A stretch of 64,000 nt of DNA, taken from the NCBI GenBank assembly GCA_963789265.1, contig CAWBKB010000001.1, positions 768,001 through 832,000 on the forward strand, read 5' to 3'. Within the stretch, counting starts at the first letter, position 1; each line of letters opens with the position of its first letter. This document shows, one piece after another, positions 49,779 through 53,994 of this stretch. Under the pieces are notes generated by a model. That model was not told where the DNA came from. It did no database searches and saw only the letters and a list, made by a program, of their open reading frames with translations. The position numbers and the translations under genes were made by a program. The stretch comes from an uncultured delta proteobacterium. Its GTDB lineage: Bacteria; Desulfobacterota; Desulfomonilia; Desulfomonilales; Desulfomonilaceae.

Positions 49779-50723
49779 ATGATGGACAAGTCTATTGACG
49801 TTCCCGAAAGGTTGGCACTGAAGGGCGTTGGCCGCAGGGACTTCATGAAGTTCTGCGGATTCGTGGCGACCGTTTTAGGCCTTCCCATGACCTTTGCTCC
49901 GCGTATAGCTGAGGCTATGGCAACCAAGCAGCGTCCCACGGTGATTTGGCTGAGTATGGCGGAATGCACCGGTTGCACAGAATCCCTTCTCCGCACTGCT
50001 AATCCCTGGATAGCGGACATCATCCTGGATACCATCGACCTGGCCTATCATGAGACGGTCATGGCCGCGGCCGGGCAGCAGGCGGAGCAAGTTCTCGAAG
50101 ACACAATTAAAAAGTACAAAGGTAAGTACATTTGCATCGTGGATGGGTCGATCCCCACAAAGGACAACGGCGCGTACGGCAGGGTCGGCGGAAAAACGAT
50201 GATGGAGATCGTTAAGAATGGCGCGAAGAATGCCGCGGCCGTGATCTGTGTGGGAAATTGTGCCAGCTACGGCGGTATACCTGCGGCCAAACCCAATCCC
50301 ACGGAAGCAAAAACAGTAACAGAAGTAACCGGAGTTAAGACGGTCAACCTCGCGGGTTGCCCGCCCAATGCCGATAACATTGTGGCGACGATTGTTCATT
50401 TTCTCCTGCTGGGCAAACTCCCTGCACTTGATAAGCATGGGAGGCCTCTGTTCGCCTACGGTCAACTAATTCACGACAATTGCGAACGAAGGGGACATTT
50501 TGAAGCTGAAGAGTTTGTGAAGGAATTCGGTGATGAAGGCGCGGCCAAAGGCTGGTGCCTCCGGAAGGTAGGCTGCAACGGTCCTGAGACGCACAGCAAT
50601 TGTCCGAAGATCCGGTGGAACCAGGGGACCAACTGGCCGATCGGCGCGGGCCATCCATGCATTGGGTGCATGGAACCACACTTCTGGGACAACATGAGTC
50701 CTTTCTATGTTGAACGAAGCTAG
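49779..50723 (+). CDS. Periplasmic [NiFe]-hydrogenase small subunit (group 1)
   Basis: Tat RRDFMK, ECTGC, GNCA, GCPP, HDNC, HPCIGC; no C-terminal TM anchor. Confidence 0.96.
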   Translation: MMDKSIDVPERLALKGVGRRDFMKFCGFVATVLGLPMTFAPRIAEAMATKQRPTVIWLSMAECTGCTESLLRTANPWIADIILDTIDLAYHETVMAAAGQQAEQVLEDTIKKYKGKYICIVDGSIPTKDNGAYGRVGGKTMMEIVKNGAKNAAAVICVGNCASYGGIPAAKPNPTEAKTVTEVTGVKTVNLAGCPPNADNIVATIVHFLLLGKLPALDKHGRPLFAYGQLIHDNCERRGHFEAEEFVKEFGDEGAAKGWCLRKVGCNGPETHSNCPKIRWNQGTNWPIGAGHPCIGCMEPHFWDNMSPFYVERS

Positions 50724-50776: not shown

Positions 50777-52445
50777 ATGGCAAGAGTCGTCGTTGACCCC
50801 ATTCCGAGGATTGAGGGTCACCTGCGCATAGAGGTAGAAGTACAGAATGGCAAGGTGAAGGACGCTTGGAGCAGTGGAACGCTCTTCAGGGGGATTGAAA
50901 TAATTCTACAGGGACGTGACCCTCGGGATGCCCACCTGATTACCCAGCGTTCCTGCGGTGTTTGCACCTTAGTCCACTCGTTGGCCTCCGTCAGAGCGGT
51001 GGAGGATGCTCTCAAGATAAAGATTCCCCCCAATGCCAGAATCATACGTAACTTGACCCACACGCCCCAGAAACATGCACGATCACCCGGTCCATTTTTA
51101 TCAATTGTGTGCCCTGGACTGGGTGGACGTAGTATCGGCCCTTCACGCGAACCCAAAGAAGACCGCAGATCTCTCCAACGCGGTCAGCGGCCGGCCTCAG
51201 AGCGCGAAGTATTACGAAGCTCTCAAAGGGAAGTTGAAAGCTTTTGTGGACTCCGGCCAACTGGGTCCCTTTGCTAACGCCTATTGGGGCCACCCTGCTT
51301 ACAAGCTTAATCATGAGGCCAATCTGATGGCCGTGGGGCACTATCTGGATAACCTGCGCAACCAGGTTTATGCTGCTCAGCTCACTGCAATTTGGGGCGC
51401 TAAGAACCCACACCTGCAAGGACATCTGCCCGGCGGCGTGACTGTAGCTCAGCAACTTGCCAGCGTGGAATGGATTGCCAAGTACAAATACATGCTCGCC
51501 GAGCAGATCAAGTTCATCGAGCAAGTCTACATTCCGGACATCTTGGCTGTGGCCGGTTTCTACAAAGACTGGACTAAGATCGGGGGAAACAAGAACTTTC
51601 TCTCCTACGGAGATTTTCCTGAAGGCCCAGAGGAACCGGAGAGCTTCTACTTCAAAAGAGGCGCAATTCTGGACGGAAAACTCAATCTTGTGAAAATCGA
51701 CCCGGGGAAAATTACCGAAGAAGTGGCGCACTCCTGGTATGAGGGGGGGAAGCCGTTACATCCTTACTCAGGTGAAACCCTACCGCTTTCGGGTGACAAG
51801 CTCAAGGGAGCGATTCCCGACACCAAAGACCAGAACGGGAAGTACAGTTGGATCAAGTCGCCCAGGTACGACGGGAAGGTCATGGAAGTAGGCCCGCTGG
51901 CTCAGTGCCTGACGTCCTATGTCGGCGGCAACAAGGAGATCAAAGAGAATGTCGACATGGTGTTGAAGAAGCTCAATGCAAAGCCTGATGCGTTATTCTC
52001 CACCTTAGGACGGATAGGGGCCCGCGGTATCAAGTGCCTGGTTAACGCCAGGAGGGCCCAGAAATGGGTTGACGACCTCGTCGCGAACCTTAAGAAGGGT
52101 GACACAAAGACCTTCACATCATACAAGCTCGACGAGAGTTCCAACGGTGAGGGCATGGGTCTAAATGACGTCGCGTGGGGCTCCCTGGGGCACTGGGTCA
52201 TTATAGAGAAAGGCAAGATCAAGAACTACCAGCAAGTTGTTCCGTCCACGTGGAACCTTGGACCCCGGGATGCTAAAGGGCAGAAGGGACCTGTAGAGAA
52301 CGCTCTTATCGGAACCCCCGTTGCCGATCCGAAAAAGCCTCTTGAAATTCTCCGCACAGTCCATTCCTTCGATCCATGCATTGCCTGCGCGATACACGTG
52401 ATCGATCCCCACACAAACGAGGTCTACAAATTCAGGATCTCCTGA
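50777..52445 (+). CDS. [NiFe]-hydrogenase large subunit (+1 frameshift near 51072)
   Basis: [23 protein letters not shown] with cleavable C-terminal tail. Confidence 0.95.
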
Positions 52446-52466: not shown

Positions 52467-52493
52467 AGGGCGGCCGAATGGCCGCCCTTTTTT
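52467..52493 (+). terminator. Intrinsic terminator after the hydrogenase operon
   Basis: agggcggcc gaat ggccgccct followed by a T run. Confidence 0.85.
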
Positions 52494-52537: not shown

Positions 52538-53311
52538 TTATCCCCATATACGAACGGCATCGGTTGGGCACTTCTTGTGGCATTCCAGACAGGAGATGCA
52601 CTCTTCCGGCCGATCGTCGGAGACCCCGAACTCATTGCTGTCGGGTGCAGTTTCCATAGGACATACCTTGTTGCAGGTCCCACACCCGATGCAGTCCTTT
52701 GTGCGTTCCGGGAAAATGGCTGCGAATCGGTTGAATACTGACAGACACGCCCCGAGAGGACAGATGACTTTGCAGAAGAACCGTCGATGCCCCATGATCA
52801 AGATGATCAATCCAAAGAGGATGGCCAGCCGAACAGAGAGGCTCACGACGTGAGTGGTTCCATTGATTACTGCCCAGGGAATCGCGGATTCAATTGTGGC
52901 CACGGGACAAAGCTTGCAAAAATAAAGCGGCGAGTTTGGGGAGAGGAAATAAGGGACGAGGACCAGAAGGCCCACAAATACTCCGTACTTGATGAATCGT
53001 GTCCAAGAAGGAATTTGAAACTTGACATAAGGCACCTTGTAAAGAAGCTCCTGAGCGAGTCCGAAAGGGCAGGCCCAGCCGCACAGGAACCTTCCCGCCA
53101 ATAGCCCGGCCACTGCTATCCCGCCTACTACACTCAATGGGACGATCCCCAGAGAGACGCACTGGCCGATTACCCCCATGGGGCAGGCAAAAACTGACAC
53201 AGGGCAGGAATGACAGTTAAGGACGGGAAAACATATAAAATGCCACTTGAACAGCCCGATATTGAAAAGGGCTGCCAGGACCACCTGGACCTTTAATCTG
53301 ATTCTTTCCAC
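52538..53311 (-). CDS. Membrane 4Fe-4S binding protein (NapH/MauN-like polyferredoxin)
   Basis: LNCHSCP..ACP, GRFLCGWACPFG, FCKLCP, FCKVICPLG, two CxxCxxCxxxCP motifs. Confidence 0.9.
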   Translation of the reverse strand: MERIRLKVQVVLAALFNIGLFKWHFICFPVLNCHSCPVSVFACPMGVIGQCVSLGIVPLSVVGGIAVAGLLAGRFLCGWACPFGLAQELLYKVPYVKFQIPSWTRFIKYGVFVGLLVLVPYFLSPNSPLYFCKLCPVATIESAIPWAVINGTTHVVSLSVRLAILFGLIILIMGHRRFFCKVICPLGACLSVFNRFAAIFPERTKDCIGCGTCNKVCPMETAPDSNEFGVSDDRPEECISCLECHKKCPTDAVRIWG

Positions 53312-53452
53312 TTTTATGAAACCTTGTCCGGAGCCGCCGAGACTCTTGGAAGTCTTAGCAAACGGACTGGCACGCCTTGATGAAGCGGCTCACGGTCTTT
53401 CGAGATTTCTTGTCGTCGAAGCCGTTTCGAATTCCGGCTTCAGTCCGTAGAC

Positions 53453-53477
53453 GGCACCGCAGACCTGCGGTCGCGCC
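53453..53477 (-). promoter_or_regulatory. Candidate bacterial SECIS hairpin
   Basis: GGC-GCG-ACCGCA-GGUC-UGCGGU-GCC directly 3' of the UGA at 53485-53483. Confidence 0.6.
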
Positions 53478-53800
53478 TAGGTTCAGGAAGGACATGGACG
53501 CCGGCCCTTGAGCATTCGCAAGTCCGGATAGTTGGAAATCAGACGCCCGTCCTTGTACTTGCCGATACCGTCAAAGGTTTCGGCATTGACTACTTCGGGC
53601 TCGGTAAACCACTGGGACTGGACCTTGAACTGACCTTTTTTCTGCTCATATCCCGGGATTTTGATGGTGATTCCAACGCCTTTCAGCTTATCAAACTTCT
53701 CGAGGTTGTCGAAAATGAGAAACTTCCGGAAAAAACCGCCATAAACTATTGCGGTGAGACTCATCACCAGCAGGATTGCGAAAAATACTTTTCTAATCAT
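53477..53800 (-). CDS. Small N-terminally membrane-anchored protein; candidate C-terminal CxxU selenoprotein (ends at 53483 if UGA is a stop)
   Basis: N-terminal TM; ends RRPCPS-TGA-ACC-TAG with a SECIS-like hairpin. Confidence 0.65.
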
Positions 53801-53994
53801 CGTAGCCCTTCTCCGACAATCCGCATCTGCCTTGGCCTATTTTGAGAACTGCTGAGCGGAACGGTTGGTCTATCGACCTCGGATTCATAAAATCATTATA
53901 CCCGAATTACGATTGACCCACCATGGCAATCCGTGTCATTAAAGCGGAACTTCTCCAGTAGACGGCAAGTCGCGAACAGGAACGAAGAAAAGGA

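Follow-up and report, generated by a model that had tools for sequence, protein, structure and literature searches.

The window analyzed here, a 64,000-nt stretch of contig CAWBKB010000001.1 from an uncultured delta proteobacterium of the Desulfomonilaceae, very probably encodes a selenoprotein at positions 53477..53800 of the minus strand. The mechanical open reading frame (ORF) at this site (53483..53800, minus strand) has 105 amino acids (aa) and the C-terminus RRPCPS. When its UGA codon (53483..53485), which gene callers read as a stop, is taken as selenocysteine (Sec), the product has 107 aa and ends in CPSUT, as was originally proposed and as readthrough translation of the ORF bears out. 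The full coding sequence thus has 107 codons (105 + Sec + Thr) before the true stop, a TAG two codons past the UGA (53477..53479). The predicted C-P-S-U redox motif consists of Cys103, Pro104, Ser105, and Sec106 (53483..53494). We consider the best explanation overall, with a probability of roughly 0.85, to be a selenoprotein gene truncated by annotation, in which Sec would be inserted by means of a downstream hairpin and whose product would work with a NapH-like membrane protein encoded next to it. On this evidence the protein represents a new selenoprotein family, and the predicted family is unusual in three traits: the Sec is penultimate, the selenocysteine insertion sequence (SECIS) lies behind the true stop, and no Cys form was found.

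On the minus strand the 3' end of the ORF reads ...CCA TGT CCT TCC TGA ACC TAG and continues GCG CGA CCG CAG GTC TGC GGT GCC. All elements named in the original prediction are present: the UGA after TGT CCT TCC, the UAG two codons later, and the hairpin ACCGCA-GGUC-UGCGGU. Conservation was followed in the DNA of relatives. The set comprised the window and 47 loci from species-representative genomes (Desulfomonilaceae/Desulfomonile-type metagenome-assembled genomes), giving 48 sequences with 46 distinct 42-mers. Seven metagenome loci from a distant subfamily, about 35% identical, brought the total to 55, and the gene layout is kept in 48/48 and 7/7. The codon past CP[ST] is TGA in 48/48 sequences and 7/7 metagenome loci; TAA and TAG, named beforehand as the signs of an ordinary stop, never occur there. 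A single sense codon follows in all 48 sequences, where ten codons are used to encode Ile (31), Leu (8), Thr (6), or Val (3). The next in-frame stop is found exactly two codons past the UGA in 55/55, and its identity varies (TAG 24, TAA 14, and TGA 10 in the 48 sequences). The distant subfamily has CPS-TGA-(ATT/ATC/GTC)-(TAG/TAA), then a hairpin with a G-first loop, in 7/7 loci, and C103 and P104 are invariant there also.

Stop codons of neighboring genes at the same loci served as a control matched for genome and phylogeny. The NapH-like gene ends in TAG 13, TAA 16, and TGA 16 times (n = 45), gmk in TAG 12, TAA 14, and TGA 12 times (n = 38), and htrA in TAG 15, TAA 11, and TGA 8 times (n = 34). 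The invariant TGA, the constrained next codon, and the shifting second stop therefore argue for translation through the UGA rather than for an ordinary stop. The coding evidence past the UGA amounts to two codons only and is hence qualitative; taken together, the comparative pattern across relatives is far beyond chance. It fits poorly with an alternative in which the TGA is a real stop, the protein ends ...CPS, the hairpin stabilizes, attenuates, or terminates the mRNA in an operon, and the second stop acts as a safeguard in case the UGA leaks. Neighboring genes use the three stop codons about equally, yet the TGA does not vary; the second stop is always two codons on while its identity shifts; and the ten intervening codons encode four similar residues only.

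The SECIS-like element (53445..53481, minus strand) has a lower helix and an upper hairpin in minimum free energy (MFE) structures and lies almost wholly 3' of the true stop. Its upper stem-loop, ACCGCA/GGUC/UGCGGU (53456..53471, minus strand), is enclosed by the lower helix and occupies positions 15-30 counted from the U of the UGA (53485), the loop being separated from the UGA by 17 nt. Bacterial SECIS (bSECIS) elements are described by a loop of 3-9 nt and an upper stem of 4-16 bp, a G in the first two loop positions, a spacing of 16-37 nt from the UGA, and an MFE of -7.5 kcal/mol or lower (PMC13188914, Fig. 2 legend). The window element falls within all four criteria. Comparison with the K-12 record confirmed that the Escherichia coli fdhF 10-mer, GCAGGTCTGC, has its GU at positions 23-24 after the TGA, and that the GU of the window hairpin, at 22-23, is one base nearer the UGA, both as first reported. 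The exact fdhF 10-mer is found in 5/48 family members only (by inspection), so the conserved feature is the geometry and not the fdhF sequence. That the two 10-mers are identical probably reflects coincidence or convergence.

A MAFFT alignment of the 3' regions misaligned the 3' arms, which follow loops of unequal length, and RNAalifold found no pairs in it; a loop-anchored analysis was used instead. With a loop-anchored script for perfect stems, run on the 48 sequences, a perfect stem was present in 48/48. The distance from the U to the start of the stem is 13-15 nt in 41/48, the loop starts at positions 20-22 in 42/48, and position 21 is G in 45/48. Mean perfect stem length was 6.75 bp, compared with 4.0 bp in shuffled sequences (highest of 200 shuffle means, 4.48). 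A second hairpin script covered 54 sequences; locus L057 was dropped by its pattern, though it has a hairpin in the first script. Among the 54 sequences there were 38 distinct inner hairpins, in which the five inner pairs showed 4-6 pair types each, with both sides altered in 16-24 of 38. In controls, a slid 3' partner paired in 8-66% of cases and permuted arms in 45% on average (maximum 59%). The conserved hairpin that the original prediction called for is therefore seen in the relatives, its position kept and its arms covarying. These results also bear on the real-stop alternative, because the distance of the hairpin and its G-first loop stay constant through 38 inner sequences. The terminator scan called no terminator-like site at the hairpin, and a U-run tail was found in 1/48 only (L056, by inspection); both argue against a transcript end at this point. 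A search of positions 53300-53900 against Rfam gave nothing relevant, with one chance hit (E 3.8).

Database homologues carry the same truncation. A word-indexed protein search gave 190 homologues at E up to 0.01, and the best 120 of the 190 all end in PCP[T/S/A], 92 of those 120 being exactly 105 aa. The expectation that gene callers would miss the readthrough is borne out by these 120 proteins, which all stop at CP[TSA] and, where named, are called "hypothetical protein." When 1.84 billion cluster representatives were searched exhaustively with an HMMER profile, only nine hits came out. Five of the nine are full-length; they have 84-102 aa, are about 29-35% identical, and end in [YF]CP[ST].

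Several observations weigh against a selenoprotein. The window hairpin taken alone is not exceptional: the z-score of its 61-nt fold is -1.04, and folds as good or better came from 31 of 200 shuffles. That the hairpins in the set are 100% paired is not evidence in itself, since the finder selects canonical pairs by construction, and the argument therefore depends on stem length relative to its control and on how varied the pair types are. Loop and stem size and the G in the first two loop positions agree with bSECIS in 54/54; spacing agrees in 50/54, the other four having 15 nt, and 28/54 minimal hairpins reach -7.5 kcal/mol. When the perfect upper stem alone is folded, 27/54 fall within all four criteria. 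Counts over relatives overstate independence, as the sequences are kin. Cys-containing homologues are usual, although not obligatory, for bacterial selenoprotein families, and Cys variants had been expected in other genomes. This expectation failed: no Cys aligned to the Sec was found among the best 120 of 190 homologues, in the nine profile hits, or in the 55 DNA sequences. As no Cys variants turned up, the family looks Sec-only, and the support lost in this way is made up for by the kept codon and second stop past the TGA. Hairpins between operon genes are common, and a real stop would account for a window hairpin no better than its shuffles, for the half or so of the minimal hairpins that are weaker than the bSECIS energy limit, and for the lack of a Cys form among the homologues examined. 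Set against the stop-codon, spacing, and loop patterns given above, we regard a real stop as very unlikely, and a candidate Sec codon remains the preferred reading of the UGA.

Insertion of Sec requires its own machinery, and the check for it proposed with the original prediction gave a positive answer. The genome (9 contigs, 6.06 Mb) encodes SelA (594 bits, cut-off 268), SelB (386 bits, cut-off 242), SelD (360 bits, cut-off 125), and tRNA-Sec (71 bits, anticodon TCA). The selD gene (G000:C7:193442-194362, locus L133) carries a single in-frame TGA of its own, and SelD in this genome is therefore probably itself a selenoprotein. The small gene and selA share a contig, at a distance of 8-30 kb, in at least 10 of the 30 genomes sampled from the family (G239, G267, G407, G409, G413, G419, G427, G431, G437, and G443); the genome of the window has them on separate contigs (C1 and C5). 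This proximity may be plain synteny.

UGA is the leakiest stop codon, and it could be read by a near-cognate tRNA (Trp or Cys) or by leakage to give a product ending CPS-W/C-T. Such readthrough is extremely improbable in this family. The hairpin has bSECIS geometry and is kept at a spacing compatible with SelB, all four Sec components are present, and the UGA stands where it completes a CxxU motif. If Cys were tolerated at this position, TGT or TGC forms would be expected, and there are none in the 55 DNA sequences.

The gene has a narrow distribution. In a sample of the phylum (401 genomes) it was found in 7/7 other genomes of the window's family and in 0/393 outside the family. In a sample of the class, a single copy was present in each of 30/30 genomes from the window's family, compared with 0/30 in the sister family; SelA was found in 29/30 and 24/30, respectively. 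The gene thus belongs to the core of one Sec-using family, in which it is single-copy, and a sparse, distant branch of it occurs in metagenomes.

The small protein has a predicted N-terminal transmembrane (TM) anchor at residues 5-23 (53732..53788, minus strand), with conserved R3 and K4 before it and invariant Y20 and G21 at its end. The membrane anchor claimed in the original prediction agrees with hydropathy, which gives a single TM segment at residues 5-23, and with an AlphaFold2 helix at residues 2-23 (predicted local distance difference test, pLDDT, about 90). Columns invariant in both subfamilies are Y20, G21, W64, E67, T75, G78, G85, C103, and P104. No Pfam model matches the 105-aa or 107-aa form, nor does any NCBIfam (release 20) model at E up to 1, and a search of PDB sequences found nothing (best E 3.8).

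The partner gene (52538..53311, minus strand) encodes a NapH-like membrane protein of 257 aa with four predicted TM helices and matches to Pfam Fer4_5 and Fer4_9. It lies directly downstream of the small gene on the same strand in 47/47 related genome loci and 7/7 metagenome loci, and its identity falls to 41-43% in the distant branch. Like NapH/MauN (TIGR02163), the partner has four predicted TM helices, two CX3CP motifs, and a C-terminal 4Fe-4S pair. It differs from them in scoring far under the cut-offs (TIGR02163, 52.7 bits with a cut-off of 213.05; NapH equivalog NF007013, 42 bits with a cut-off of 234), in having no nap genes nearby, and in six extra invariant Cys; judged by its TIGR02163 score it is not NapH proper. 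Across 32 orthologues the invariant Cys include two CX3CP motifs (C77x3C81P and C180x3C184P), the eight Cys of two 4Fe-4S motifs (CxxCxxCxxxCP, twice) in a C-terminal 2x[4Fe-4S] ferredoxin domain, and the six others, C27, C33, C36, C43, C132, and C135. The six lie in two loops with 0.1 and 1.1 Lys + Arg, and the other loops have 3.0, 5.5, and 12. By the positive-inside rule, these loop counts would place the six extra Cys outward and the CX3CP motifs and clusters in the cytoplasm. A PDB sequence search with the partner matched the ferredoxin domain only.

Other neighbors conserved in the window's family are gmk (43/47), an HtrA-type protease (35/47), and agmatinase (29/47). At the distant loci L073, L078, and L079, the start codon of the small gene coincides with the end of a gene of about 351 aa, and the two genes are possibly in one operon. 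A complex prediction for the NapH-like and small proteins gave a score of 0.15 and a mark of 0.32 with no control runs, and has no weight either way. The small protein and the NapH-like protein are reasonably likely to be a functional pair. We infer the pairing because the NapH-like gene is directly downstream at all of these loci across about 42% identity, and because NapH-like paralogues elsewhere are preceded by small anchored proteins ending in a [U/C]xxC motif.

These paralogous modules were found in the phylum sample. Weaker NapH-like relatives (94-196 bits, compared with 456-494 for orthologues) are present in 110 further genomes of the 401. A short anchored protein is encoded directly upstream of the NapH-like paralogue in 20/22 readable loci (L113-L132 among them); at locus L112 it lies farther upstream. 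The short proteins (e.g., L113:975-1109, L128:1257-1394, and L120:1257-1394, all plus strand) have about 43-51 aa, with some being longer, and end in [U/C]L[SAH]C[IVM]G[IVL]x-stop. Of the 20, 13 have TGA at the first motif position and 7 have a Cys codon. A SECIS-type hairpin (GGGGUC/GGGU/GACCCC type) about 16 nt past the TGA was drawn in the MFE structure of 9/13 Sec forms, and the more distant Cys forms are without it. All six short proteins tested matched NF040920 (CD1871A family CXXC motif-containing protein) below its cut-off of 32, at 13.7-30.7 bits. No mention of CD1871A was found in the papers searched, and NF040920 is absent from the available text of the 2026 review PMC13188914. The short [U/C]xxC proteins are probably a second unrecognized Sec/Cys family.

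NF040920 and its variants share several features with the window protein: a single N-terminal anchor, a basic N-terminus, and Y/F-G-x-F at the anchor end. The variants also have a terminal redox-type motif, a gene position directly upstream of a NapH-like gene, and Sec in many members. Unlike the window protein, they are about 43-51 aa, end in [U/C]xxC-IG[VI]G, and have Sec in the first motif position. The window family has 107 aa with an extra domain of about 80 residues, a CP[ST]U-x end, Sec last in the motif, and no Cys forms. The window protein is without the C-terminal CxxC and about four further residues of NF040920, ending instead in CPSU-T, and at E up to 1 the NF040920 model does not match the 107-aa readthrough form. 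When compared in hhalign, the anchors of the window family and of the short proteins aligned with probabilities of 67% (A6 vs. A7) and 75% (A4 vs. A7), E about 3-5e-5, over 27-28 columns. The likeness is confined to the hydrophobic helix and the Y/F-G-x-F motif, so anchor homology is not established; the alignments are suggestive of common ancestry. Genomes of the window's family have one NapH-like gene of this clade each, and the CP[ST]U protein therefore fills the place of the short [U/C]xxC protein.

The paralogous modules often lie beside ccsA/resB-type genes of System II cytochrome c biogenesis. A ccsA-type gene (PF01578) is directly upstream of the module at eight loci (L116-L121, L123, and L128), and resB-type genes (PF05140) are near it at L117, L120, and L126. 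Thioredoxin-fold Redoxin/AhpC-TSA genes occur near L114, L119, L127, and L128, multihaem cytochromes c near L113, L114, and L119, and tetratricopeptide repeat (TPR) proteins, several of which also match the CcmH/CycH TPR model, near L113, L114, L125, L127, L130, and L131. At least one such neighbor type is present at 15/22 loci, or 12/22 without TPR-only loci, counts that are not independent because many of the loci come from related genera.

The proposed mechanism starts with a ribosome that reaches the UGA past Cys-Pro-Ser, where the hairpin starting about 14 nt downstream would recruit SelB-Sec-tRNA(Sec). Sec106 would be inserted, a single further residue would follow (Thr in this protein and Ile, Leu, or Val in relatives), and translation would end at the second stop. 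The product would have one N-terminal anchor, a domain of about 80 residues, and a flexible C-terminal C-x-x-U, in which C103 and U106 could form a selenenylsulfide on the C-terminal tail. The small gene would be co-transcribed with the gene for the NapH-like polyferredoxin. The cytoplasmic 4Fe-4S clusters and membrane-face Cys motifs of the partner may supply electrons to the Cys/Sec pair, which may in turn act as reductant at the surface of the membrane, most likely its outer face, on a substrate of the thiol/disulfide type or on a metal(loid). From these features we infer a membrane selenol/thiol redox relay.

The role of such a relay can be suggested with less confidence. Supply of periplasmic reductant, of the type used in cytochrome c maturation, is a tentative proposal. 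It is similarly doubtful, though conceivable, that the CP[ST]U protein and its NapH-like partner are one lineage's form of a widespread, undescribed two-gene membrane module, in which a NapH-like polyferredoxin would be joined by a small anchored protein with a selenol/thiol motif at its end (CxxU here, [U/C]xxC elsewhere). The module would carry cytoplasmic Fe-S reducing power to the outer face of the membrane and, with its Fe-S and selenium chemistry, replace or supplement CcdA/DsbD in System II cytochrome c maturation and in other reduction of periplasmic thiols. Some findings count against these functional proposals. The AlphaFold2 model of the 105-aa form has a mean pLDDT of 65 and a predicted template modeling score of 0.26, with the soluble part poor. 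The charge flanking the anchor is ambiguous (Lys + Arg 2.0 before it and 4.7 in the 22 residues after it); we lean toward an N-in/C-out orientation because the N-terminus resembles the n-region of a signal anchor. The two ccsA-type and two DsbD_TM genes of this genome lie elsewhere and do not adjoin the pair, and strict replacement of CcdA in this genome is unsupported.

A different role for the predicted selenoprotein would be in binding rather than electron transfer, with the C-x-x-U as a ligand for a metal or metalloid (Cu, Hg, As, Ni, or similar) and the partner as a metal reductase. CcoG, a related polyferredoxin, acts as a cupric reductase. Outside its clusters the partner has ten invariant Cys, which stand in CxxCP and CX3CP motifs, and a cation-efflux gene is near one paralogue (L112). 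There is also precedent in the 2026 review, which records Sec-containing metal transporters and chaperones and regards Sec as a possible metal ligand in several recent families with C-terminal or Cys-adjacent Sec motifs (PMC13188914). However, no conserved metal transporter or chaperone gene stands beside the pair, where gmk, htrA, and agmatinase are found instead, and the paralogous modules adjoin cytochrome c maturation and thioredoxin-fold genes, not metal genes. The ligand role is therefore unlikely.

Other features of the window near the gene pair include a [NiFe] hydrogenase. Its small subunit is at 49779-50723, and its large subunit (50777-52445, plus strand) is split over two frames, with the change at about 51055-51075. 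The N-terminal part with RxCGVC runs from 50777 and the rest from 51075 (456 aa, ending DPCIACAIH); the split reflects either a genuine frameshift or an indel in the assembly. A strong terminator-like hairpin (52467-52488, plus strand), with nine pairs followed by TTTTTGTGTG, lies between the convergent hydrogenase large-subunit and NapH-like genes. A 46-aa ORF in another frame (53355..53495, minus strand), which extends over both the UGA and the hairpin and has the C-terminus ...KACQSVC, is present in 1/47 related loci and is therefore taken for neither a conserved gene nor a frameshift continuation.

The original prediction left room for an earlier description of the family. No model or paper describing it was found, the BSepDB family table being outside the scope of the search. 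The 2026 review tabulates known and predicted prokaryotic selenoprotein families, mostly with Pfam or NCBIfam identifiers (PMC13188914), and none of the models of families in the accessible table matches the window protein. The available parts of Haft and Gwadz (2022) deal with other selenoprotein families and not with this one. Literature searches on selenoproteins with Desulfomonile gave nothing on the family, those on selenoproteins with cytochrome c biogenesis/CcsA gave nothing relevant, and among the papers listed for NapH with CcsA/CcdA maturation none contained NapH. Searches based on Cys/Sec pairs would miss the family because it has no Cys form, and searches based on ORF extension would miss it because readthrough adds two residues and the SECIS is behind the real stop. 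A core gene in all 30 sampled genomes of a whole family of anaerobes is thus represented in databases by truncated, unnamed entries. The set of [U/C]xxC and NapH-like proteins also provides a testable hypothesis for the delivery of reductant to the periplasm in some anaerobes. As the apical 10-mer of the window equals that of fdhF, a 75Se test in E. coli is realistic.

The element resembles the E. coli fdhF SECIS in its apical 10-mer (GCAGGUCUGC), GGUC loop, and near-equal spacing to the UGA, with the GU at 22-23 in the window and at 23-24 in fdhF. Unlike the fdhF element, which is in coding sequence, the window element is behind the stop, and the lower stems differ. Animal thioredoxin reductase ends in Gly-Cys-Sec-Gly, uses a eukaryotic SECIS, and has a flavoprotein domain of the same enzyme as electron donor. 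The window protein is like it in having a Cys/Sec pair with penultimate Sec on a presumably flexible tail fed by another redox center, although the proteins are unrelated, and the pair is an adjacent CU in the reductase and CxxU in the window. Among bacteria, "X-star" selenoproteins have Sec at or next to the C-terminus and include KCU-star (NF033934) and UXX-star (NF041114 and NF041211) (PMC13188914, Table 1; bioRxiv 10.1101/2022.07.06.499078). Like the window protein, they are small, and their database entries are cut off at a UGA that precedes the real end by a few codons; because of this short distance, the SECIS must lie largely behind the stop in both. The window protein differs from the X-star proteins in having no NCBIfam match, in its CP[ST]U-x rather than KCU or Uxx ending, and in its N-terminal anchor and obligatory NapH-like neighbor.

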